A stretch of DNA of 64,000 nt from an uncultured Spartobacteria bacterium (GTDB taxonomy: Bacteria; Verrucomicrobiota; Verrucomicrobiia; Chthoniobacterales; UBA6821), in NCBI GenBank assembly GCA_903868795.1, contig CAIPWR010000126.1, positions 5,172 to 69,171 of the forward strand, given 5' to 3'. The first letter of the stretch is position 1; every line of letters begins with the position of its first letter. The notes beneath the pieces were generated by a model. That model searched no databases and was not told the origin of the DNA. It saw only the letters and a list, made by a program, of their open reading frames with translations. The position numbers were made by a program, and so were the translations under genes. This document shows positions 33,550 through 45,273 of the stretch, one piece after another.

Positions 33550-33939
33550 ATGAAGCGATTTCTTCCCCTCCTGGCCGTATTGCTTGTATCGGCCTGCACT
33601 TCCCACCTGCAGCAGAAAGAAAATTTTCTTCGTGAAGCCGGGTTCCTAGCCGTGCGGCCGACAACCCCCAAGCAGATCGCGAAAGCCCAGGCCCTCCATC
33701 CGGGGAAGATCACTCAGATCACGCGCAAGGGACACACGCTTTATGTCTTCTCGGATCCCAGCAAGCATCTGCTCCTTCTTGGAGGCACTACCCAGTTTGA
33801 GCACTATCAGCAGATCCTTTATAAAAAGCAGGTCGATCCCGCGATCGAGAACCATGCCTTTGACAAGGCCCTCGAGTATGATGACTACGCCTGGGGCGGC
33901 ATGATGGGCCCCTACTTCGGCATGCCGATGTTCTACTAA
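33550..33939 (+). CDS. lipoprotein of unknown function, tandem paralog A
   Basis: 129 aa. Lipobox LLVSAC. Homologous along its length to the next gene. Confidence 0.55.
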   Translation: MKRFLPLLAVLLVSACTSHLQQKENFLREAGFLAVRPTTPKQIAKAQALHPGKITQITRKGHTLYVFSDPSKHLLLLGGTTQFEHYQQILYKKQVDPAIENHAFDKALEYDDYAWGGMMGPYFGMPMFY

Positions 33940-33952
33940 CCACCACCACTCC

Positions 33953-34354
33953 ATGAAACAATCCATCCGCCACCTCCCGCTTCTTGCCCTCCTGTTCCTT
34001 GCGCTTGTTCTGTCGGCGTGCGCCTCTCATCTGCAGAAGAAGGAGAGCTTCCTGACTCAAGCGGGCTTTCGCACGGTGAAGCCATCGACCCCCGAGCAGA
34101 TCGCCCACTTCCAATCTCTGCCTTCCGGTCACATCCGCCATGAAGAGCGGAATGGGAAGACCCTCTATATGCTGGCCGACAGCTCCAAGAACCTCCTGCT
34201 GGTTGGCGGCGAGGCCGAGTACGCACAATACCAGGAGATCCTCTACTCCAAGGAAGTGGAGCCGGGTAAGAAAGCGGACAAGATCACCAAGGGGATCGCT
34301 AACATCTGGGATCAAGGCTGGGGATCCGTCCTCGGCTCCATGGTCCCGCAATAG
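33953..34354 (+). CDS. lipoprotein of unknown function, tandem paralog B
   Basis: 133 aa. Lipobox LVLSAC. Shares blocks SHLQxKExFLxxAGF..V.P.TP.QIA and LLL.GG...Y..YQ.ILY.K.V.P with paralog A. Confidence 0.55.
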   Translation: MKQSIRHLPLLALLFLALVLSACASHLQKKESFLTQAGFRTVKPSTPEQIAHFQSLPSGHIRHEERNGKTLYMLADSSKNLLLVGGEAEYAQYQEILYSKEVEPGKKADKITKGIANIWDQGWGSVLGSMVPQ

Positions 34355-34376: not shown

Positions 34377-34946
34377 ATGAACGTTCCACGCATCCTGGCC
34401 TTCGGTGGCAGTCTCCGTAAGGATTCCTACAATCAGAAACTTGCTGCTATCGCCGCCGAGGGAGCGAGAGAAGCGGGCGCCGAGGTCACGCTGATCTCGT
34501 TGCGTGATTTTCCGATGCCGCTCTTTGATCAGGACCTCGAAGCTGCGCATGGGATGCCTGCTGAGGCCAAGCGCCTCAAGGAACTCTTCCTCTCGCATCA
34601 GGGGCTACTGATTGCCTCGCCGGAATACAATAGCGGCTACTCCGCCGCTCTGAAGAATGCCATCGACTGGGTTTCTCGAAGCGAAACGTCCGACGAACCT
34701 GCACTCTCAGCCCTGGCGGGTAAAAGCGCCGTCATCATGGCCGCCTCTCCCGGAGGCCTCGGCGGTCTCCGCGGATTGGTTCCCCTCCGCATGCTCCTTG
34801 GCAACCTCGGCATCACCCTGCTCCCTGACCAGATGGCGATCCCCTCGGCCTTTCAGGCCTTCGGCCCGGACGGCCACCTCGTCGATCCCAAACAGGAAGA
34901 GAAGGTGAAAGCCCTCGGTGCAGCGCTAGCGGTGCAGTTGAAGTAG
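34377..34946 (+). CDS. NADPH-dependent FMN reductase family protein
   Basis: ORF 34140..34946 trimmed to Met80. ILAFGGSLRKDSYNQKLA...LLIASPEYNSGYSAALKNAIDWVSR is the FMN_red signature. Its last 49 codons are duplicated at 36270-36416. Confidence 0.8.
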   Translation: MNVPRILAFGGSLRKDSYNQKLAAIAAEGAREAGAEVTLISLRDFPMPLFDQDLEAAHGMPAEAKRLKELFLSHQGLLIASPEYNSGYSAALKNAIDWVSRSETSDEPALSALAGKSAVIMAASPGGLGGLRGLVPLRMLLGNLGITLLPDQMAIPSAFQAFGPDGHLVDPKQEEKVKALGAALAVQLK

Positions 34947-35023: not shown

Positions 35024-36121
35024 TTATCGAAGGGAGACGTTGCTCAGGAGTTGGAAGAGAGGCTCATTGATGAAGAAGTTCGACTTCCCCCTCTTCTCTT
35101 TGCGGAGGATTCCTTCGGCGACGAGCTGCTCCAGATATTTCGATGCGGTGACACGCGAGACTCCGAGATCCTTCTCCACGAACTCGATCTTCGTGTAGGG
35201 ATGGTGGAAGAGATTGTTGAGCAGATCCTGCGAATAGATTTTCTCAAGCCGCGTCCGGATCCGCTCCTTCGTCTCCTGCATGAGATCGCGGAGCGACTTC
35301 ACCAGGGCGATCTCACTCCGGGCGGTCATGGAGACGCCGCGGACCATGTAGAGACACCACTCCTTCCAGAGTCCCTTGTCCCGGGCTTCCTGCAGGAGCC
35401 TGTAGTATTCCCCCTTGGTCGTGGTGATGTAGCGGCTCAGGTAGAGCACAGGGAGATCGAGGAGTCCCTCCCTCTGCAGGATCAACAAATTCAGGATACG
35501 CCCCGTCCGACCGTTCCCATCGTAGAAGGGATGAATGCTCTCGAACTGGTGATGGGCGATTGCCATGCGAAGGATCGGGTTCAGATCATCCTCGGCATGG
35601 AGAAATGAGATGAGATTGTCCATCAGGGCTTCCACCTCGGCGGCACTTTGCGGTGGCTCATAGACAATCCGGCCTGTGGCGGGATTTTTCAGAACAGTTC
35701 CGGGGAGTTTCCGCAGGCCTGCCTTTCTCGGTTCGATCCGCGCCTGCACATCCAGCAGCGTTTTCAGCCGGATCAGACCGCTCTGACGGACATCATCGAA
35801 TCCCACTTGCAGGGCCTCGACATAGTGACGCACCTCCTTCACAGCACCGGGAGCAGCCTCCTCCTCACGGTCCGCGAAGATCTCATCGTGGCTCGTGATG
35901 ATATTCTCGATCTCGGAGCTGTCCTTGGCCTCCTGAATGGCAAGCGTACTGATCAGGATCGACTGGTTTGGCAGGGATTCGCAGAGCCCTTTTAGTTCGG
36001 CAAGATGGCGCTCCGCCTCGGCAACAGCCATCCAGACCTCTCGGCAATCGAGCATCGAGAGATCAGAGATGGGAAGAGGAGATAGCGTGGACATAGATAG
36101 AAACGGTCGAAATCTTTTCAC
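35024..36121 (-). CDS. fic: Fic family protein (AMPylase-type) with N-terminal inhibitory motif and C-terminal wHTH
   Basis: 365 aa. Catalytic loop HPFYDGNGRTGR. SSEIEN fits the (S/T)xxxE(G/N) auto-inhibition helix. C-terminal GVSRVTASKYLEQLVAEGIL. Confidence 0.9.
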   Translation of the reverse strand: MKRFRPFLSMSTLSPLPISDLSMLDCREVWMAVAEAERHLAELKGLCESLPNQSILISTLAIQEAKDSSEIENIITSHDEIFADREEEAAPGAVKEVRHYVEALQVGFDDVRQSGLIRLKTLLDVQARIEPRKAGLRKLPGTVLKNPATGRIVYEPPQSAAEVEALMDNLISFLHAEDDLNPILRMAIAHHQFESIHPFYDGNGRTGRILNLLILQREGLLDLPVLYLSRYITTTKGEYYRLLQEARDKGLWKEWCLYMVRGVSMTARSEIALVKSLRDLMQETKERIRTRLEKIYSQDLLNNLFHHPYTKIEFVEKDLGVSRVTASKYLEQLVAEGILRKEKRGKSNFFINEPLFQLLSNVSLR

Positions 36122-36269: not shown

Positions 36270-36416
36270 GGCAACCTTGGCATCACCCTGCTCCCCGACC
36301 AGATTGCGATCCCCTCGGCCTTTCAGGCCTTCGGCCCGGACGGCCACCTCGTTGACCCCAAACAGGAAGCCAAAGTCAAAGCCCTCGGCGCCACGCTGGT
36401 AGAGAATCTGAAGTAT
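36270..36416 (+). pseudogene. orphan duplicate of the FMN-reductase 3' end (last 48 codons, stop mutated to TAT)
   Basis: GNLGITLLPDQIAIPSAFQAFGPDGHLVDPKQEAKVKALGATLVENLK compared with residues of 34800-34946 gives 42/48 aa identical. There are about 20 nt mismatches in 147 by hand alignment. The offset is exactly 1470 nt with no indels. No upstream coding part exists. Confidence 0.75.
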
Positions 36417-36557: not shown

Positions 36558-36586
36558 TTGACTTACTTTTTTGCCGTTCGTAAGAT
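36558..36586 (+). promoter_or_regulatory. sigma70-like promoter TTGACT-N17-TAAGAT upstream of the antitoxin gene
   Basis: TTGACT at 36558-36563, a 17-nt spacer, TAAGAT at 36581-36586. The ATG at 36597 lies only 10 nt after the -10 element, giving a near-leaderless transcript. The 9-bp direct repeat CTTACTTTT at 36544 and 36562 overlaps the -35. Confidence 0.35.
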
Positions 36587-36596
36587 TTATTCAAGC

Positions 36597-36830
36597 ATGA
36601 CTACTGAAACCATCACCTTCACCACCAAGGGACAGGTTGTGATCCCTGCTCCAATCCGCCGTATGTTCGGCATTGAGGAGGGTACCAAAGGGGCGGTAAC
36701 CGTGACGGAAGATGGGATCCTGATCCGCCCCATCACGAAGGCCTACATCAGCGGTCTGCGCGGATCGCTGAAGCACCTCCCCCTGATGGAAGTGCTGACC
36801 GAGGATCGCGTGCGCGAACGAGATCTCTAA
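36597..36830 (+). CDS. AbrB/MazE/SpoVT-family antitoxin (VapB-like)
   Basis: 77 aa (Met138 of track ORF 36186..36830). TKGQVVIPAPIRRMFGIEEGTKGAVTVTEDGILIRP is the swapped-hairpin SpoVT/AbrB motif. Ends 1 nt before the PIN gene. Confidence 0.75.
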   Translation: MTTETITFTTKGQVVIPAPIRRMFGIEEGTKGAVTVTEDGILIRPITKAYISGLRGSLKHLPLMEVLTEDRVRERDL

Positions 36831-36831
36831 A

Positions 36832-37239
36832 ATGGCTGCCAAGGTACTCGATAGCTGGGCGCTCCTAGCGTTCTACAAAGACGAACCATGCGCTTCCGAA
36901 GTGGAAAAACTTATCCAGCAGGCTGCTGACAAAGGAAGGCCCCTCCTCCTCAGCGTGATCAACTGGGCTGAGATCCACTACTCCCTCGAGAGAGCTGGTG
37001 GCAAAGCTGTCGCTGAGAGGGTCGCCGAGCAAATCGCCGAACTTCCGATCCAAGTGGTCGGCGTTGGTGATGATATGAAGACCGCTCGAACTGCCGCTGC
37101 ATTCAAGGCAGCGAACAAGATGAGTCTTGCTGATGCCTTTGCCGCGGCCCTAGCCAAGGAGAAGAAAGCCGAACTCGTAACAGGTGATCCTGAGTTCAAG
37201 GCATTAGAAGGTCAGATCAAGATCCATTGGCTCAAGTAA
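36832..37239 (+). CDS. vapC: PIN-domain toxin (VapC-like)
   Basis: 135 aa. N-terminal VLDSWALLAF (Asp), INWAEIHY (Glu), LADAFAAALA and TGDPEF acidic positions are typical of PIN/VapC. Confidence 0.8.
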   Translation: MAAKVLDSWALLAFYKDEPCASEVEKLIQQAADKGRPLLLSVINWAEIHYSLERAGGKAVAERVAEQIAELPIQVVGVGDDMKTARTAAAFKAANKMSLADAFAAALAKEKKAELVTGDPEFKALEGQIKIHWLK

Positions 37240-37250
37240 CCGTACTTTTT

Positions 37251-39182
37251 ATGACTGCTCGATGGCATTTCAATAAGCACAGACCTTGTGATCGGATGAG
37301 GGATCCGGAAAACGAAGCGTTTTTTACGGCCGAAGGTTTGGAAAACCTGAGCGAGGCATTGGTGAGAGAGGGAATTCAAAATTCTCTGGATGCCTCGGAT
37401 TCAAACAGCGGAACAAGGAACGTTCATGTCAAAATCAGATATGTCAGCCATGGCCTACCCGGGGTCTCAAATTATTTGAAGGAGGCGTTCCTACCGGTGT
37501 TGGACAATTTTTCTAAAGGTTTAGGTGTCGACAAAAGCGTTATTGAAAAAAACCTGAGTGAAACAGGTGTGTCTTTAGTTTTTGAGGACTTTGGTACCAA
37601 GGGCCTCACTGGTGATGTGCGTGAGGTTCGGATAGAACCATCGCTCCAAAATGCCTTCTTCAGTTTCTTCCGAGCGGAGGGAAGATCAGGCAAAGATGGA
37701 GACCGTATCGGGCGATGGGGTATTGGAAAACAGGTCTTTCCCACCAGCAGCCAACTCCATGCAATCCTTGGGGTTACTGTCAGGAGAGAAAGTCCCGAAA
37801 AAGTTCTAATGGGGAGCGCCGTGGTTCGGAGCCATTGCGTCGATGACCAAGATTATCAGCCAGATGCGTGGTTCGGTATCAGGGGTGATGAGCAGTCTGC
37901 AGTCATGCCTTTAGAACATACCGATGGCGTTGAAACTTTCTGTGGCATCTTTGGTTTGGAGAGGGGCTCGCGCGCAGGGCTTTCTGTTTTGATACCCGCC
38001 GTTGATCCTAGAATTGAGGTCAAAGATCTTATCAACGGTGTTCTCAAGAGCTTTTTTTGGACCGTTCTCAAAGGTGAACTATCTGTGTCGATTGTCGGAC
38101 CAGATGGAGAGATCAAGGAAATCAATAATTCCACAATTTCCGATCATCTCCTGAGTCTTGAGCCGAAAGATGCAGGTATCATTAATTGTGCAGTTTGGGC
38201 GGCAAACATGGAGGCAGAGAAGATGGTTATACTTGAAGGTAGTGAAGCCAGGATCCCGAAATGGCCGGAATCCAGAGACAAACTTCTGACAGAGGGAAAA
38301 ATCGAGGAGATCCGATCTTCGCTAGAGAGTTTGGGCAGGGTTGGAGTACGTGTGCCGGTTCTTGTTAGGGTGAAAGGCAGTGAAGAAGAAACTAAAGCGC
38401 ACTTTGACGTTTTTTTGGAAAGGACCAAGGAACCGGAATCCAGAACAGTTTTTCTAAGAGACGGGATAGTCATCACAGATGTCAGGTCTCCCAGCATCGC
38501 CGGGAGTAGGAGCCTAGTTGTTGCAAGCCACGAAAAAATCGCGCGCCTCCTAGGCGACTCAGAAGGTGTAAACCATACTCAATGGCAAAAAGACTCCCCA
38601 AAGTTTCACAACAAATACGTCTACGGACCCGACACCATAACATTTGTCCAGAGAAGTGCTTATGAAATCTCGAGAAGCGTTCAAGGGGCTGATTCAAGCG
38701 GGGACCCCACATTGCTAAGGGATTATTTCTCGATACCAGAAGAATCCGGAGAAAAAGAAAGAGGGAAGAAAGAAAGGCCTGGAATTAAGCCTGCTCTACC
38801 GATTCCACCCCCACCTCCACCGCGGAAATCTTGGTACACAGTCCAGCAAGATGCCCGAGGAGGCGGATTTGTTATTGGTGCTGGAGACGAGGATTCCACA
38901 AAAATAACTTTCCCTTTTTCTCTGCGTATAAAACTCGGTTACGCCGTCCGAAGCGGAAATCCGATCAAAAAATGGAGTCCTGCCGACTTTGAAGTGAACA
39001 AAGATCCAATATGCTCAAATCCTGATAACAAAGGTATTGAGATAGAGGCCGTTGACGGGAACGAGCTTACAATAAAGATACTTTCACACGATTTTACATT
39101 TGGTCTTCAAGGTTTTGATAAACACCGGGATCTTGAGGTCAGGGTCAATAAGCTGACTGATAACAATGAAGAGGACGTTTAA
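37251..39182 (+). CDS. divergent GHKL (Bergerat-fold, MORC/HATPase_c_3-like) ATPase with large uncharacterised C-terminal region; cassette ORF1
   Basis: Track ORF 37227..39182 (TTG start); ATG at 37251 preferred. In 651-aa numbering: N-box EALVREGIQNSLDA (E48, N52, D55), G1-like VFEDFGTKGLTG (D121, G123, G126), G2-like GRWGIGKQVF (162-171). Poly-Pro linker PIPPPPPP (525-532) and a final domain of about 117 aa. Confidence 0.6.
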   Translation: MTARWHFNKHRPCDRMRDPENEAFFTAEGLENLSEALVREGIQNSLDASDSNSGTRNVHVKIRYVSHGLPGVSNYLKEAFLPVLDNFSKGLGVDKSVIEKNLSETGVSLVFEDFGTKGLTGDVREVRIEPSLQNAFFSFFRAEGRSGKDGDRIGRWGIGKQVFPTSSQLHAILGVTVRRESPEKVLMGSAVVRSHCVDDQDYQPDAWFGIRGDEQSAVMPLEHTDGVETFCGIFGLERGSRAGLSVLIPAVDPRIEVKDLINGVLKSFFWTVLKGELSVSIVGPDGEIKEINNSTISDHLLSLEPKDAGIINCAVWAANMEAEKMVILEGSEARIPKWPESRDKLLTEGKIEEIRSSLESLGRVGVRVPVLVRVKGSEEETKAHFDVFLERTKEPESRTVFLRDGIVITDVRSPSIAGSRSLVVASHEKIARLLGDSEGVNHTQWQKDSPKFHNKYVYGPDTITFVQRSAYEISRSVQGADSSGDPTLLRDYFSIPEESGEKERGKKERPGIKPALPIPPPPPPRKSWYTVQQDARGGGFVIGAGDEDSTKITFPFSLRIKLGYAVRSGNPIKKWSPADFEVNKDPICSNPDNKGIEIEAVDGNELTIKILSHDFTFGLQGFDKHRDLEVRVNKLTDNNEEDV

Positions 39183-39912
39183 TTTTACAGGGCGTAAGAA
39201 TATCAACAGGGAAGATGTCGCTGTGACACTTGTTCGTACCCCAACAGCACTGTCATTCAACGCCAATCCCAATTTGGAGGGCTATAGTTTTCCTGGGGAT
39301 GCGGATATATGGATTGAAATATACCGCGGAAACCTCATTAAACAATGCTATTGGGGAAAGGTTTCGCAGCCTGAAGCTCCGCTAGATCGCGATCTCAGCG
39401 TATTTGAAGTCCCCGACGGAATTCAATTCAGGTTGCGCGTCGTGAGTCTTGCTGATGGCAATCTGCTAAAGATGCTTGGCGAGGCCGATCACGTTACGTC
39501 AAAGGATACAGAGGATAATCCAGACAATAGAAAGCCATTGATCACACCGGTTCCAGATGATCTGGGGCAACAGCTTTGGAAGATCGATTTCATCGCAGAT
39601 CCGCCGGTTCTTCTGATTAACAACCAAGCCAAAGATGGCTGGAAGGACATAGCCCGATCCAGTGTGTTTATAGCTTTGGTGTATCCTCAAGTCATGAGAA
39701 GCATGTTGTCCAAAATCCTGATTGAGGATGAATGGGACGAAGATGGAGCAGATTGGCAGGATAATTGGATGCACTTTGCCAAGCGAAACTACACCGCCAA
39801 AGTTTTACCCGCAGTCTCCGATCATGAAGGAAGAGAGCGATGGATCGAGGATGCAGTGGATGCATTTGCATCCATAAAGAATCTCAAAGACCTATGGGAC
39901 GCGAACAGCTAG
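39166..39912 (+). CDS. hypothetical protein, cassette ORF2 (no recognisable domain)
   Basis: 248-aa ORF whose ATG lies 17 nt inside ORF1 (translational coupling). Acidic, Trp-rich C-terminal half EDEWDEDGADWQDNWMHF. Lower-GC codon usage, like its neighbours. Confidence 0.6.
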   Translation: MKRTFNFTGRKNINREDVAVTLVRTPTALSFNANPNLEGYSFPGDADIWIEIYRGNLIKQCYWGKVSQPEAPLDRDLSVFEVPDGIQFRLRVVSLADGNLLKMLGEADHVTSKDTEDNPDNRKPLITPVPDDLGQQLWKIDFIADPPVLLINNQAKDGWKDIARSSVFIALVYPQVMRSMLSKILIEDEWDEDGADWQDNWMHFAKRNYTAKVLPAVSDHEGRERWIEDAVDAFASIKNLKDLWDANS

Positions 39913-39918
39913 ACTAAC

Positions 39919-40641
39919 ATGAATATTCGCCGTTTTAACGATAAAGGATTGGCAGCATTCAGGAATTACTTGGATGAGGTGAAATCTGATCCGACCTTGT
40001 CTGTACCAACCAATCTTCTAGAAGACGACGAATGCACTGAAATTATTTCCTCCAAGGTGGAATTATCGGCTCGTTTACTGCCCACAAGAATGGAGGCAGG
40101 TACTTTTCTATTAGAGATTGTAGAAAAAATTGGGCTTACTACTCCCGAAAAAGATGTGGGTTTTTGGTCGTGGATGGCGCTGGTCTTTTTTGAATCTCTT
40201 TGCCCTGTGGATCGGGCTGGAAAACGTAAAATGGGTGATAAGTCCAGATGTATACTTGAGCTTCGTCACGATCGCTTCTACAGGCATCTACTTTTGGGCC
40301 CATTCCTGATTGTTCGGGCGCATAAAGATAATCCTGATCGGGCGGTTGTCCTTTTGAGTAATCCGCCAAGTACACCCGGAGATATTTCCGAGCAGTTTTC
40401 TTCAAGATTGGAGCAGATAACCAACAAGGGCCTCGTTGAGCTTCTTTCAAGACTCTACTTTGATCCGATACACAAAACGATTAGACGAGGCGCTGCTGGA
40501 AAAGGAGGGGGTTCCGTGAGACGATTATCTATGCTAATCAATCAACTAGATCTCACCTACTACCTCTATGGCATGACAGGCGAGGCCTTGGCTCAGCTTT
40601 TGCCCAAAGAATTCGACAAGTTTCGGAAAGCTGCAGACTAA
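39919..40641 (+). CDS. hypothetical protein, cassette ORF3 (no recognisable domain)
   Basis: 240-aa ORF starting 6 nt after ORF2 and ending 6 nt before the methyltransferase. No motif I can place. Confidence 0.6.
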   Translation: MNIRRFNDKGLAAFRNYLDEVKSDPTLSVPTNLLEDDECTEIISSKVELSARLLPTRMEAGTFLLEIVEKIGLTTPEKDVGFWSWMALVFFESLCPVDRAGKRKMGDKSRCILELRHDRFYRHLLLGPFLIVRAHKDNPDRAVVLLSNPPSTPGDISEQFSSRLEQITNKGLVELLSRLYFDPIHKTIRRGAAGKGGGSVRRLSMLINQLDLTYYLYGMTGEALAQLLPKEFDKFRKAAD

Positions 40642-40647
40642 ACAAAG

Positions 40648-42132
40648 GTGAGTTTCCTTGTAATTGATCTGTTCGCTGGGCCTGGAGGGCTTGGGGAAGG
40701 TTTTGATTCCCTTTCGGATGAGAAGGGTAATGCCGCATTCAAAATAGCCCTTTCCATTGAATGTGATGATTTTGCCCACCGAACCCTTGAGCTAAGAAGT
40801 TTCTACAGACAATTCCACAAGAAGGATGTTCCAGGGGACTACTACCGTTACCTGAGAGGTGAGATTTCACGGGAAATACTTTTTTTGAAAAATCCTCGCG
40901 AGGCAGATCAAGCTATGGCTATAGCTGCAAAGATTCGCCTAGGGGTCGCGGAAGCACATGAGGTTCACAAAAGAATAAGCAGCGCTCTAGCTGCACGTGG
41001 AAAAAACCCTTGGGTACTTATAGGAGGGCCTCCATGCCAGGCTTATTCACTTGTGGGAAGATCGCGAAGAAGAGGCGAATGCCGAGCAAAGTTCGAAAGC
41101 GATGAAAAGCATCTCCTCTATAAGCAATATTTACAAATCATCCATGATCATCGTCCGGCAGTCTTTGTGATGGAGAATGTGAAAGGGATCCTTTCGGCCA
41201 AATTGGGAGGAGACAGGATTTTTTCTCGTATCTGTAACGATCTTGCTGCAGAGGGATATGATCTTTATGGCTTAAATGGAAAAGAACCCAGATCCACAGA
41301 GCTATTTGGAAACGGAGGCTGGGATCCTTCTATGTTTGTAGTTCGATCAGAGGATTATGGTATTCCTCAAGCAAGACACAGAGTTTTCATCGTAGGGCTC
41401 AGCCGTGAATACTTTCCCGGGAAAGTTTCACCATCCGCTGTTCAACTTTTGGCTTCCGGAAGACAAGTGACCGTTGAGGAAACAATCCGAGATATGCCGG
41501 AAATATGGAGCGGTCTCTCATCCGATCGAGGGGATACAGTAGGCTGGTTAAAGGCGCGTGATCGGGGCCTTAAAAAGGCCGGATATTCGAGGGTGGCATC
41601 CACAATGATGCCTGAGGCGGGCCACGGAGGACGGTTTATTGCGGGTAAGACGCCTGTATCCTTCAAACGCGAATGGTTTAATGATGCACGTATAAAAGGG
41701 GTTATTCAGCACGAGTCACGCACGCATATGGACGGCGATGTTTCGCGTTATGCGTTTGCTGCTGCTGTTGCACCCCAGTATGGATGCAGCCCCTCGATCC
41801 ATGATTTCCCAAAAGCCCTGCTCCCCGCTCATAAAAATGTTCATTCTGACGAAGGTGAAACCATCCCATTTGCTGATCGCTTCAGGGTTCAAATGTTCGG
41901 GGGCCCTTCCACAACGATCACGAGCCACATCTCCAAAGACGGGCACTACTACATTCATCCTGATCCGGAACAGGCTAGGAGCCTTACCGTTAGAGAGGCT
42001 GCACGATTGCAGACGTTTCCAGACAATTACTTTTTTGAGGGTCCAAGGACTCAGCAATACCACCAAGTAGGTAATGCTGTGCCGCCTTTGTTGGCGCATC
42101 AGATAGCAGCCATCGTTCATCGGTTGCTCTAG
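40648..42132 (+). CDS. dcm: DNA (cytosine-5)-methyltransferase
   Basis: 494 aa, GTG start. Motif I DLFAGPGGLGEGF, motif IV GGPPCQAYS (Cys130), motif VI FVMENVKG, motif VIII IPQARHRVFIVG, motif IX TVREAARLQTFPD, motif X QVGNAVPPLLA. Confidence 0.92.
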   Translation: MSFLVIDLFAGPGGLGEGFDSLSDEKGNAAFKIALSIECDDFAHRTLELRSFYRQFHKKDVPGDYYRYLRGEISREILFLKNPREADQAMAIAAKIRLGVAEAHEVHKRISSALAARGKNPWVLIGGPPCQAYSLVGRSRRRGECRAKFESDEKHLLYKQYLQIIHDHRPAVFVMENVKGILSAKLGGDRIFSRICNDLAAEGYDLYGLNGKEPRSTELFGNGGWDPSMFVVRSEDYGIPQARHRVFIVGLSREYFPGKVSPSAVQLLASGRQVTVEETIRDMPEIWSGLSSDRGDTVGWLKARDRGLKKAGYSRVASTMMPEAGHGGRFIAGKTPVSFKREWFNDARIKGVIQHESRTHMDGDVSRYAFAAAVAPQYGCSPSIHDFPKALLPAHKNVHSDEGETIPFADRFRVQMFGGPSTTITSHISKDGHYYIHPDPEQARSLTVREAARLQTFPDNYFFEGPRTQQYHQVGNAVPPLLAHQIAAIVHRLL

Positions 42133-42282: not shown

Positions 42283-45273
42283 CTACGCAGTCCGCCCACA
42301 GCAGGACTTGTACTTCTTGCCGCTACCACACGGACAGGGATCATTCCGTCCCACTGTCTTCGGAGCCCTCTGCGCCGCAGGCTTCTGCTGCATCGCCTGT
42401 TCAAACGCGGTCTGTGGTGCGGTCTGCGTGTTATCGGCTTCTCCCTCATTAGCCCCGATGTGTCCCTCGGAGCCGAGCAGATCCTTCTGCATGAGGTGAC
42501 GCGGGAGGGAGGCGAGCAACTGCTCAAACGCCTGGAGGTTGGTCGTGGAGCGGAAGAGGTTGTTCAGGACCTCGTTCTTGATGCTCTCCATCAGCTCCAC
42601 AAACATGGCGTAGGCCTCGGTCTTGTACTCGGTGAGCGGATCCTTCTGACCGTAGGCACGGAGGTAGACGGCCTCGCGGAGTCCATCCATGGCGTAGAGG
42701 TGCTCCTGCCAGAGGCGGTCGACGGCGTTCAGGATGACATACTTCTCGAGTCCGGAGCGGGCGGCCTCGTCCTCGATCGCAGCCTTGCGGTCGTAGGCCT
42801 CGACGAGCGTCTTGGCCAGCCACTCGCCGTTCTCTTCGATCTCGCGAGTCTCGAAAGCACACTTCTCCTTGGTGAGTCCTACGGGGAAGGTGGAGTTCAC
42901 CCACTGGAGGAGTCCGGCGACATCAGGCTCGGAATCACTGCTTTCGGTCGTGAGGAAGGCAGCGACTTTCTTCGGCACGACTTCATTGATGACCTCATGA
43001 ATGAGGGTGCGAGGATTCTCGGAATCCATGACCTCGTTGCGGTAGCCGTAGATGACTTCGCGCTGTTGGTTCATCACGTCGTCGAACTCGAGGGTCCGAC
43101 GGCGCATGAGGTAGTTCCGCTGCTCGACACGCTTCTGGGCGGTCTCGACGCTCTTGTTGAGCCAGGGATGCTCGAGCTCCTCGCCCTCCTGCATGCCGAA
43201 GGTCTCCATGATCTTGGTCATGCGGTCGGCTGCGCCGAAGTTCCTCATGAGGTCGTCCTCGAAGCTGATGTAGAAGCGGGAACGGCCCGGATCTCCCTGA
43301 CGCGCGCAGCGTCCGCGCAACTGGCGGTCGATGCGGCGCGACTCATGCCGCTCGGTGCCCAGGACGAAAAGTCCGCCCAACTCGGCGACGCCTTCACCGA
43401 GCTTAATGTCAGTTCCGCGGCCGGCCATGTTCGTCGAGATGGTGACGGCTCCACGCATACCGGCGCGCGAGATGATCTCGGCCTCCTGCATGTGGAACTT
43501 GGCGTTCAGCACGGTGTGGGGAATATGTTCGCGCTTGAGCATGCGGCTCAGGACTTCGGAAGCCTCGACGCTGGCGGTACCTACAAGGATCGGCTGGCCA
43601 CGGCCGTGGGAGGCCTTGATCTCCTCGATGGCGGCGGCCATCTTCTCGCGGCGCGTCTTGTAGATGCGGTCGTTCTCGTCGAGACGGGCGACGGGGCGGT
43701 TCGTCGGGATGACGGTGACATCGAGTCCGTAGATGTCGTGAAATTCATTCGCCTCGGTCTCGGCCGTGCCGGTCATGCCTCCGAGCTTCTCGTAGAGACG
43801 GAAGTAGTTCTGGATGGTGATCGTCGCCATCGTCTGGGTCTCGCGGTCGATCTGGACCCCTTCCTTGGCCTCGACGGCCTGGTGGAGCCCATCGCTCCAG
43901 CGGCGACCCGCCATCTTGCGGCCGGTGAAGGTATCGACAATGACGACCTTGTTCTCCTCGACGACATATTCGACATCCTTCTCGTAGAGGCAGTAGGCCT
44001 TCAGCAACTGGGCAATGTTATGCATCCGCTCGGCGGAGTGGTCGCAGTGCTGCTGTGCGGCGGCTTTCTTGGCGGCCTTCTCGGAATCGGAGAGCGCGGT
44101 GTCGGTCTCGATGTCCGCGAACTCCGTGAGGAGATCGGGGAGGACGAAGGCGTTCGGGTCATCGGGGTTCAGGAAACTCCGGCCCATCTCGGTGAGGTCG
44201 GCCTCCTGCTGCTTCTCTTCGATGGTGAAGTAGAGTTCTTCCTTCAACGCCACGAGCGCGTCCTTGGAGGTATCCTGGTAGAACGAGAGCTCGGCCTTGT
44301 CGGTGAGGCGGCGCAGCTCGGGATCCTCCATGGCGCGGAGGAAGCCCTTGTTGCGGGGCTGGCCGAGCTTCACCTTGAAGAGGGCCATGCCGGCGGCTTC
44401 TTTTTCGCCCTTCGCGAAGAGTTCCTTGGCGTCGGCGACGAGTTTGTTGACGTGGGCTGTCTGCTTGCGGACAAGCTGTTCGACCAACGGCTTGAAGCGG
44501 TCGTACTGGTGCGTCGAAACGGTGGCCGGCCCACTGATGATGAGCGGGGTGCGGGCCTCGTCGATCAGGATGGAGTCGACCTCATCGACGATGGCGTAGT
44601 AATGCCCGCGCTGGACCTGCTGCTCGCGGCTGGTCGCCATGCCGTTATCTCGGAGGTAATCGAAGCCGAACTCGCTGTTCGTTCCGTAGGCGATGTCGCA
44701 CTCGTACTGGGCACGGCGCTCCTCTGGGGACTGGTCGTGCTGGATGATGCCGGTGGTAAGTCCCAGGAAAGCGTAGAGTTGACCCATGCACTCGGCGTCG
44801 CGGCGGGCGAGGTAGTCGTTCACTGTCACGACATGGACGCCGAGCCCGGTGAGGGCATTGAGATAAACGGGGAGGGTCGCCACGAGGGTCTTTCCCTCGC
44901 CGGTGGCCATCTCGGAGATGCGTCCCTTGTGGAGCACCATGCCGCCGACCAGCTGGACGTCGAAGTGAACCATGTTCCAGGTGTACTCGTAGTCGCAGAC
45001 CATGAACTGCATCCCGACCATGCGGCGGGCGGCGTTCTTCACGACTGCGAAAGCCTCGGGGAGGATCTCGTTCAGGCGCTTCTGCAGAAGGGCGGGATCC
45101 TGAATCTGGGAAAGCTCGGCCTTCCAGGCAGCGGTCTTCTCACGGAGTGCCTCGTCGGGGAGCGACTGGAGTGACTGCTCGATCTCGTTGATCTTGGCAA
45201 CAAGCGGGAGCATCCGGCGCACTTCGCGCTGGTTTTTCGATCCGACGATTTTCTTTAAGATCCAGTTAAACAT
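42283..45273 (-). CDS. secA: preprotein translocase ATPase SecA
   Basis: 996 aa. MATGEGKTLVATLP Walker A, DEVDSILIDEARTPLIISG, C-terminal Zn motif CPCGSGKKYKSCCG. Confidence 0.95.
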   Translation of the reverse strand: MFNWILKKIVGSKNQREVRRMLPLVAKINEIEQSLQSLPDEALREKTAAWKAELSQIQDPALLQKRLNEILPEAFAVVKNAARRMVGMQFMVCDYEYTWNMVHFDVQLVGGMVLHKGRISEMATGEGKTLVATLPVYLNALTGLGVHVVTVNDYLARRDAECMGQLYAFLGLTTGIIQHDQSPEERRAQYECDIAYGTNSEFGFDYLRDNGMATSREQQVQRGHYYAIVDEVDSILIDEARTPLIISGPATVSTHQYDRFKPLVEQLVRKQTAHVNKLVADAKELFAKGEKEAAGMALFKVKLGQPRNKGFLRAMEDPELRRLTDKAELSFYQDTSKDALVALKEELYFTIEEKQQEADLTEMGRSFLNPDDPNAFVLPDLLTEFADIETDTALSDSEKAAKKAAAQQHCDHSAERMHNIAQLLKAYCLYEKDVEYVVEENKVVIVDTFTGRKMAGRRWSDGLHQAVEAKEGVQIDRETQTMATITIQNYFRLYEKLGGMTGTAETEANEFHDIYGLDVTVIPTNRPVARLDENDRIYKTRREKMAAAIEEIKASHGRGQPILVGTASVEASEVLSRMLKREHIPHTVLNAKFHMQEAEIISRAGMRGAVTISTNMAGRGTDIKLGEGVAELGGLFVLGTERHESRRIDRQLRGRCARQGDPGRSRFYISFEDDLMRNFGAADRMTKIMETFGMQEGEELEHPWLNKSVETAQKRVEQRNYLMRRRTLEFDDVMNQQREVIYGYRNEVMDSENPRTLIHEVINEVVPKKVAAFLTTESSDSEPDVAGLLQWVNSTFPVGLTKEKCAFETREIEENGEWLAKTLVEAYDRKAAIEDEAARSGLEKYVILNAVDRLWQEHLYAMDGLREAVYLRAYGQKDPLTEYKTEAYAMFVELMESIKNEVLNNLFRSTTNLQAFEQLLASLPRHLMQKDLLGSEGHIGANEGEADNTQTAPQTAFEQAMQQKPAAQRAPKTVGRNDPCPCGSGKKYKSCCGRTA

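Follow-up and report, generated by a model that had tools for sequence, protein, structure and literature searches.

We analyzed a 64,000-nucleotide stretch of DNA from an uncultured Spartobacteria bacterium (contig CAIPWR010000126.1; hereafter, the window, with positions counted from its first letter), which carries a cassette of four consecutive open reading frames (ORFs). They encode a GHKL ATPase (ORF1), two small proteins (ORF2 and ORF3), and a cytosine-5 DNA methyltransferase (ORF4, here also called Dcm); ORF1, ORF2, and ORF3 are referred to together as the trio. We found that the cassette is a widespread methylase-linked ATPase system that resembles restriction-modification (R-M) systems and is a relative of an already catalogued anti-phage candidate. 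It is not wholly new in kind, because the lineage of its ATPase engine has already been described (paraMORC2) and catalogued (PDC-M33), and because the trio also exists without methylases. The features of the cassette are as follows, with protein lengths in amino acids (aa).

36558..36586, + strand: sigma-70-like promoter match TTGACT-17-TAAGAT just 5' of vapB, a candidate operon promoter
36597..36830, + strand: vapB-like antitoxin of the MazE/AbrB type, 77 aa (Pfam MazE_antitoxin, E = 9.6e-9)
36832..37239, + strand: vapC-like PIN-domain toxin, 135 aa (Pfam PIN, E = 5.5e-16), ending 11 nucleotides before the ORF1 ATG
37251..39182, + strand: ORF1, predicted GHKL ATPase with transducer (paraMORC2/PDC-M33A-like), 643 aa
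37251..38000, + strand: predicted Bergerat-fold ATP-binding domain of ORF1, aa 1-250 (motifs I to III, secondary structure, Foldseek)
38337..38690, + strand: predicted S5-like transducer of ORF1, aa 363-480, including the invariant E438-G-V-N-H442-T-Q-W loop (38562-38585)
38835..39155, + strand: predicted C-terminal seven-strand beta domain of ORF1, aa 529-635 (AlphaFold2 (AF2) secondary structure and pLDDT)
39166..39912, + strand: ORF2, 248 aa, always directly after ORF1
39919..40641, + strand: ORF3, 240 aa, mostly helical in the AF2 model
40648..42132, + strand: ORF4, putative cytosine-5 DNA methyltransferase, 494 aa, GTG start

Gene calls were made by script and are heuristic. The four same-strand ORFs (37251-42132) lie where an earlier reading of the letters (the sequence-only reading) had placed them, and the tight junctions that it reported are correct: ORF2 begins 17 nucleotides inside ORF1 (39166 versus 39182), while gaps of 6 nucleotides separate ORF2 from ORF3 (39912/39919) and ORF3 from ORF4 (40641/40648). 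One reading frame is common to ORF2, ORF3, and ORF4, and the 17-nucleotide overlap recurs in homologues of just ~50% identity. The same reading had opened ORF1 at TTG 37227. The gene is real, but its start is most likely ATG 37251, because homologues open with M-x-P-x-WHFN and residues 4 to 9 are modelled as a confident strand; one database copy is called from ATG 37296 and has 628 aa.

The cassette spans ~5 kb, or ~5.6 kb with the vapBC pair, and it is a low-GC insert, foreign by composition and horizontally acquired. Its genes have a GC content of 45-49%, whereas vapC and fic reach 54-56% and secA 61.6%. Third codon positions (GC3) show the difference most clearly, with values of 0.43-0.50 in the cassette, 0.71 in fic, and 0.84 in secA. 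Thus, the foreign composition noted earlier holds in direction, with the cassette below vapC, fic, and secA, but the 67-70% then quoted for secA was too high.

Directly 5' of ORF1, a PIN-domain toxin follows a small DNA-binding antitoxin, as in VapBC systems; the vapB stop ends at 36830 and, one base later, vapC starts at 36832. A MazE-type antitoxin with a PIN toxin also lies directly 5' of ORF1 in four homologous loci (L004, L008, L019, and L022) and nearby in two more (L018 and L028), and homologues of the vapB antitoxin occur 5' of the trio in L018, L019, L022, and L024; many homologous loci have no VapBC. Identity to the window pair is 45-63% and tracks the ORF1 identity of 46-50%. By these identities the pair co-diverges with the trio, so that VapBC, which the sequence-only reading had treated as a mere neighbor, appears to belong with it. 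The TTGACT-17-TAAGAT element is the only promoter-like match on the + strand between 36100 and 42400, although it is a mere consensus match and a single one is below the chance expectation for the region. The transcription unit probably begins further upstream than ORF1, at the vapB-like antitoxin (36597). Because the VapBC pair is directly 5' and co-diverging, and because the sole promoter-like match on this strand stands just before vapB, the functional unit in the window is probably vapB-vapC-ORF1-ORF2-ORF3-dcm (36597-42132). The single translationally coupled operon of four genes proposed earlier is therefore upheld as to its conserved tight coupling but probably not as to its 5' end.

That VapBC co-diverges with the trio and stands at the 5' end is what one would expect of a selfish addiction cassette, in which the island is stabilised by VapBC together with an R-M-like post-segregational killer and the host gains nothing. 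The low-GC insertion at an apparent hotspot that also took fic (see below) and the integrases flanking homologous cassettes point the same way. However, VapBC is missing from many loci, and the trio is kept across phyla under evident purifying selection. Addiction is moreover compatible with defence, R-M systems being both. We consider the purely selfish explanation improbable.

The ATPase and its two small partners

ORF1 carries three invariant Bergerat-fold motifs, E40xxxN44xxDA (N-box), D113xGxxG, and G154RWGIGK. Its AF2 model (pLDDT 80.9) predicts a GHKL domain (1-250), a helical insert, an S5-like transducer (363-480), a proline-rich disordered linker, and the C-terminal beta domain (529-635). 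In Foldseek searches, the best match of the model was topoisomerase VI-B (Topo VI-B; E = 5e-8), followed by Hsp90 and GyrB/ParE, with 72 matches at E <= 1e-3; the alignments to Topo VI-B, the GyrB 43K fragment, and Hsp90 N+M exceed 500 columns. Judged by motifs and predicted fold, ORF1 is a GHKL ATPase with transducer whose catalytic glutamate and asparagine are intact, which agrees with the Bergerat-fold assignment made from the letters. The residues named in that assignment, Cys130 of Dcm (GGPPCQ) and E48 and D121 of ORF1 in 651-aa numbering, were also correct. ORF1 had no Pfam match at E <= 1 and no NCBIfam, PHROGs, or credible PDB-sequence match.

A second hallmark of ORF1 is the ExxxHxxW loop of the transducer. 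All trio clades and six PDC-M33A-like proteins carry it at the same column of the alignment, and E438-x3-H442 does not vary among 52 homologues. In the model, pLDDT is low over the loop; by analogy with the QTK loop of GyrB, it is probably a gamma-phosphate switch loop.

ORF2 and ORF3 had no match in Pfam, NCBIfam, PADLOC, PHROGs, or PDB, in line with the earlier statement that neither could be recognized. The conserved polar residues of ORF2 are N6, T8, R10, E51, R89, and R178 only. ORF3 yielded a confident model (pLDDT 89.9, pTM 0.88), which had no Foldseek neighbor below E = 1 in PDB or BFVD. Across ~31-50% identity, ORF3 keeps an invariant core of D79, W83, W85, F91, Y121, H123, Y180, R202, Q209, and E231. 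The absence of a structural neighbor for the model, together with this invariant D/H/E/Y/R cluster, makes ORF3 the best candidate for an effector or cutter within the cassette.

Several assignments of the small proteins were rejected. A borderline match linking ORF3 with the ACT-domain protein 2pc6 (E = 0.0012) was discarded, as the confident model shows helices in this region and 2pc6 was not among the Foldseek matches. A Topo VI-A/Spo11- or Toprim-like partner was likewise dismissed, since the ORF3 model matches no PDB chain and ORF2 is without an E...DxD pattern. HEPN identity of ORF3 was rejected on inspection alone, there being no Rx4-6H, and a paralogous origin of ORF2 and ORF3 by profile comparison (hhalign P = 0.41). 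Both proteins start with a similar peptide, [KR]-[RT]-F-N-x-x-G (39166-39200 in ORF2 and 39919-39950 in ORF3), which is also found in Rhizobium and may be a docking strand common to the two.

Conservation of the trio and its methylase partners

The order ORF1-ORF2-ORF3 is invariant wherever the contig extends, in ~60 loci from at least eight phyla. These comprise 27 species genomes, 28 metagenome loci from a scan seeded from a distant clade, and further contigs; sampling started from conserved peptide patterns, some of the loci are near-duplicates, and most come from metagenome-assembled genomes (MAGs). Verrucomicrobiota supply the majority of hosts, the others being Planctomycetota, Gemmatimonadota (Gemmatimonas), Nitrospirota (Nitrospiraceae), Chloroflexota, Spirochaetota, Binatia, Limnocylindrales, Natronospirales, and Rhizobium. 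On a Rhizobium leguminosarum megaplasmid, the trio matched at E = 3e-54, 4e-28, and 1e-31 for ORF1, ORF2, and ORF3, respectively. No trio of the window type was found on IMG/VR viral contigs.

All three families are large, and public sources label all three as hypothetical. An exhaustive profile search placed the ORF2 family in 1,998 clusters at 50% identity, with nearly all members 245-270 aa long. The mean column identity of the trio is 67-72%, and purifying selection is evident. Chance or decaying ORFs without joint function are ruled out, with practically no probability left to them, by the homologues, which number hundreds to thousands and agree in length, order, and motifs, and by the confident AF2 models.

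ORF4 is, to judge from its motifs, a complete C5 methylase, as had been claimed. Motifs I, IV, VI, VIII, and X are present as FAGPGG (9), PC130Q, ENV (176), QARHR (241), and GNAVPP (475), and the protein matches Pfam DNA_methylase (1.1e-47), TIGR00675 (5e-43), and, as the best PADLOC model, DrmMII (1.5e-96). In the main clade, a Dcm gene lies within 0.5 kb of the trio in 15/15 distinct loci with both flanks; it stands on either side and belongs to one of two lineages. In the first arrangement, HTH_3-Dcm-trio-Vsr, the methylase is of another lineage, scoring ~100 bits against the window Dcm. In the second, trio-Dcm(-P123-Vsr), it is of the window lineage (400-480 bits). Both arrangements are interspersed on the ORF1 tree; therefore, the methylase partner has been exchanged or re-acquired repeatedly. 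The Dcm/ORF1 and ORF3/Vsr junctions overlap and a helix-turn-helix (HTH_3) gene stands ahead of Dcm, features typical of R-M control.

P123 is a protein of 123 aa, a ~120-aa domain that belongs to no Pfam family. It is either fused to the C terminus of the upstream-type Dcm, immediately before ORF1 (L001), or encoded by a separate gene after the downstream-type Dcm (L002, 13019-13390; a further copy is at 8230-8649 of L009). It may form the interface between Dcm and the trio. The window contains no Vsr, HTH gene, or P123. Two loci, L022 and L026, have lost trio genes and kept Dcm, which is the order of decay that R-M logic predicts.

More distant trios differ in their partners. The distant clade (clade B, ~30% identity to ORF1) and loci L034 and L025 have no adjacent methylase, and clade B has neither Dcm nor Vsr. 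Thus, the trio, and not the trio with its methylase, is the conserved core. The linkage of ORF2 and ORF3 to GHKL and methylase genes implied by the sequence-only reading holds always for the ATPase and throughout the main clade for Dcm, but it breaks down in these diverged trios. The neighbors of diverged trios include HNH_2 enzymes of two separate lineages, AspBHI-like type IV restriction enzymes, a NOV_C protein, NERD-UvrD and UvrD helicases, and a PLD-helicase, and the loci also carry integrases and ArdC. Such contexts are typical of defence islands, and the defence-type setting suggested earlier is borne out by the homologous neighborhoods.

In loci L037, L047, and L048, an AspBHI-like enzyme (RE_AspBHI_N + Mrr_cat) lies ~107 nucleotides 5' of methylase-less trios, divergently on the opposite strand. 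AspBHI depends on 5-methylcytosine (m5C). Both trio clades may therefore be tied to cytosine methylation in opposite senses, one to a writer and the other to a methyl-dependent cutter; alternatively, this is mere co-location within defence islands.

The methylase-less trios fit an autonomous module of the PDC-M33 kind, directed at defence or against mobile elements, which would sense a cue other than methylation, such as DNA ends, topology, or a phage protein, with Dcm (and Vsr) as a modular add-on and not the discriminator. Dcm could then be an independent orphan methylase, protect against other restriction systems, or dampen autoimmunity caused by the trio. Against this stand the adjacency of Dcm in every main-clade locus with both flanks, in two independent arrangements and with overlapping junctions, and the presence of P123, which accompanies the system either fused to the upstream-type Dcm or as a stand-alone protein and suggests a dedicated interface. 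We regard an autonomous trio as unlikely, though a serious alternative.

Vsr is found in most main-clade loci, and UvrD-type helicases follow distant trios. Both observations would suit a MutL-like accessory for m5C damage, that is, a mobile Dcm-Vsr very-short-patch repair cassette with its own GHKL matchmaker activating Vsr and UvrD-type helicases. Such a role is in keeping with the established stimulation of Vsr, MutH, and UvrD by Escherichia coli MutL (discussed in PMC2292703). However, the window and L004-type loci have no Vsr, clade B has neither of the two enzymes, and Vsr accompanies Dcm genes generally. Moreover, the neighborhoods are defence islands and mobile elements, and PDC-M33 stands beside a phage integrase. 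A repair accessory is thus quite improbable.

Relation to known systems

The sole library match of ORF1 was the PADLOC model PDC-M33A (PDLC04582; 2.3e-17, 61 bits), over residues 40-315. This match falls short of full length, as a true member scores 5e-205 over positions 1-626. By hhalign, the ORF1 family and PDC-M33A-like proteins align over the ATPase and transducer with a probability of 99.8% (E = 9e-28), with the C-terminal domain outside the match, which makes homology of ORF1 to PDC-M33 subunit A clear at the profile level. PDC-M33 is a three-gene PADLOC candidate with a GHKL-like subunit A of ~627 aa, B of ~289 aa, and C of ~250-350 aa (Pfam DUF6339). The window locus shares its architecture of a large ATPase followed by two small co-oriented proteins with overlapping junctions, and ORF1 shares the ExxxHxxW motif of subunit A.

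In contrast, the C-terminal domain of A is not common to the two, the B and C models miss ORF2 and ORF3, and PADLOC would not call the window locus. Neither ORF2 nor its distant homologues gave a PADLOC match to PDC-M33B at E <= 1 (hhalign P = 0.026, probability 1.9%), and ORF3 gave no PADLOC or Pfam match to PDC-M33C/DUF6339 (hhalign P = 0.016-0.031). The signals of ORF2 with B and ORF3 with C are weak but collinear (P = 0.016-0.03), whereas mismatched control pairs gave P = 0.55-0.69; homology of the small subunits is unproven.

PDC-M33 itself has Dcm, HNH_2, AIPR, and DUF4420 among its neighbors and occurs on mobile elements. The following loci were found by tblastn against plasmids and phages.

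L067, Clostridium innocuum temperate phage (NatCom_9291), 2137-5986: complete PDC-M33 directly following the phage integrase (A 5e-205, B 6e-98, C 1e-193)
L066, Enterococcus faecalis plasmid: AIPR-A-B-C
L069, Synechococcus plasmid: DUF4420-A-B-C
L070, Paenarthrobacter plasmid: A-B-C fragment adjoining a type II restriction enzyme and dcm
L071, faecal phage-like contig: A-B-C-HNH_2-Dcm

The copy in the Clostridium innocuum phage looks like prophage-borne defence cargo. A DNA methyltransferase lies ~1 kb beyond it. Literature searches found nothing on PDC-M33 or DUF6339, nor on a system with the gene content GHKL, Dcm, and two orphans.

A second precedent is paraMORC2, a GHKL ATPase family in R-M operons with Dcm and Vsr, mainly of cyanobacteria and Gram-positives (Iyer, Abhiman and Aravind 2008, PMC2292703). 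ORF1 shows N-terminal GHKL motifs, an S5-fold transducer C-terminal to them, and the ExxxH that is a published hallmark of the family (PMC2292703), a likeness by described features and not by reference sequences. The host range of PDC-M33A-type matches (cyanobacteria and Gram-positives) also fits the description. The window branch differs in being mainly from Verrucomicrobiota and other Gram-negative phyla and in its two obligatory small partners, which were not characterized there. The claim of a type without precedent therefore does not stand, as ORF1 is homologous to PDC-M33A and carries the paraMORC2 ExxxH.

The fold of the N-terminal two-thirds of ORF1, with its catalytic Glu, Asn, and Gly-rich motifs, resembles the clamps of Topo VI-B, MutL, Hsp90, and MORC. 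Unlike Topo VI-B, MutL, and MORC, the cassette has no Topo VI-A/Spo11-like or Toprim partner, no MutL C-terminal endonuclease motif, and no MORC-type Pfam signature. As to the MORC family proper, ORF1 had no Pfam match (HATPase_c_3) at E <= 1 and 1/52 members had a weak HATPase_c match; the GhXhhpXXRhl S5 motif was not searched for.

Compared with type II R-M, the window has a methyltransferase with all catalytic motifs but no adjacent recognizable endonuclease. ORF1, ORF2, and ORF3 gave no match to PD-(D/E)xK, HNH, PLD, or GIY-YIG, and the only nuclease-fold gene of the unit is the VapC PIN gene. The earlier remark that the methylase has no conventional restriction partner thus holds for the window, but related loci carry nucleases beside the trio (Vsr, HNH_2, DUF4420, AIPR, and NOV_C).

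The sequence-only reading was also right to set the cassette apart from BREX, DISARM, Druantia, Mza, and Dnd, whose required components were not found. The DrmMII match corresponds to the methylase of DISARM class 2, but no DrmA helicase, DrmB (DUF1998), or DrmC (PLD) occurs among the ORFs of 33-46 kb. Besides methylase models, there were no PADLOC matches to BREX (PglZ/BrxC/PglX), Druantia (DruA-E), or Dnd (DndA-H). CglI/NgoAVII and BsuMI/LlaJI similarly join an m5C methylase to a multi-protein, NTP-dependent restriction component. They use PLD/B3 and helicase proteins, or McrBC-like AAA+ GTPases, while the cassette has a GHKL engine and no recognizable nuclease.

Proposed function and genomic surroundings

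The reading that we favor, at just under an even chance, is that the cassette is a horizontally acquired R-M-like defence or exclusion module, with m5C as the mark of self and the trio as an ATP-driven interference module. It is based on the GHKL identity of ORF1, the invariant trio, the adjacency of Dcm in the main clade, the R-M-type junctions and HTH_3 gene, the decay of L022 and L026, the A-B-C-HNH_2-Dcm order of L071, the foreign GC content, and the paraMORC2 precedent. Dcm would methylate host DNA as the self mark, and ORF1 would dimerise on ATP like the GHKL clamps of Topo VI-B, MutL, and MORC. ORF2 and ORF3 would bind ORF1, probably at the C-terminal domain specific to its family, and would provide the contact with DNA or the effector activity. 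The three proteins together would engage DNA without the mark and block or destroy it. Candidate cutters are ORF3, the probably co-transcribed VapC PIN protein, or a nuclease from elsewhere; instead of cutting, the module may act by nuclease-free, BREX-like exclusion. The probable role of VapBC at the 5' end is to autoregulate the operon or to stabilise it; in the alternative arrangement, its place is taken by an HTH gene.

Several observations weigh against this R-M-like reading. Pfam, NCBIfam, and PADLOC searches and PDB searches by sequence and Foldseek found no nuclease motif or fold in ORF1, ORF2, or ORF3, and the diverged trios described above have no adjacent methylase. Near-equivalent trios pair with two different Dcm lineages, a pattern not easily reconciled with a restriction partner that is sequence-specific. 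Locus L009 has a fragmented Dcm but an intact trio. The upstream-type Dcm of L013, L018 (7373-8909), L021 (7150-8839), and L028 is split over two frames at residues ~200-255 of 541, within the variable region, and in L013, L018, and L021 the trio is intact despite a possibly broken Dcm. The split may instead represent a natural two-subunit methylase such as M.AquI, and an error of MAG assembly is also possible.

In a broader form, the trio would be the core of an extensive class of immune machines that are built on GHKL clamps, occur in many phyla, and have two small subunits whose folds are absent from solved structures. Foreign DNA would be stopped by a new type of nuclease (ORF3) or without cutting, m5C would be an exchangeable self mark, and the class would correspond, in prokaryotes, to the methylation-linked silencing of the MORC type. 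We consider this broader form possible but doubtful.

MORC-like GHKL ATPases have been predicted in R-M systems since 2008, and, according to our literature searches, no such multi-subunit system has been dissected. The cassette is compact, conserved across phyla, and offers clear mutational targets (E40/D113 of ORF1 in 643-aa numbering, D79/H123 of ORF3, and C130 of Dcm). As two of its three core proteins are without recognizable relatives, it could reveal new DNA-interference chemistry or nuclease-free exclusion. A function for the cassette would extend to PDC-M33/DUF6339 and to ~2,000 clusters of hypothetical proteins, and it could illuminate the way in which eukaryotic MORCs link the ATP-driven clamping of DNA with cytosine methylation.

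In the window, the vapBC-trio-dcm cassette is located between a displaced fragment of an FMN-reductase-like gene and secA. A 146-nucleotide direct repeat of 87% identity (34800-34945 and 36270-36415) copies the 3' end of the FMN-reductase-like gene and flanks fic (35024-36121, - strand), an arrangement that looks like the result of a previous insertion into this hotspot. Further upstream are two tandem paralogous genes for small lipoprotein-like proteins (33550-33939, 129 aa; 33953-34354, 133 aa), with near-identical signal/lipobox regions and the common motifs …SHLQ(Q/K)KE(N/S)FL…AGF…. On the other side of the cassette, a 904-aa ORF (42460-45174, + strand) runs antisense to secA and is almost certainly an artefact of the high GC3 of secA and not a gene. 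In the intergenic region between the secA start and a deaminase-like gene, a 22-nucleotide inverted repeat (45344-45365/45463-45484; 91% complementary, 97 nucleotides apart) may form a regulatory hairpin.

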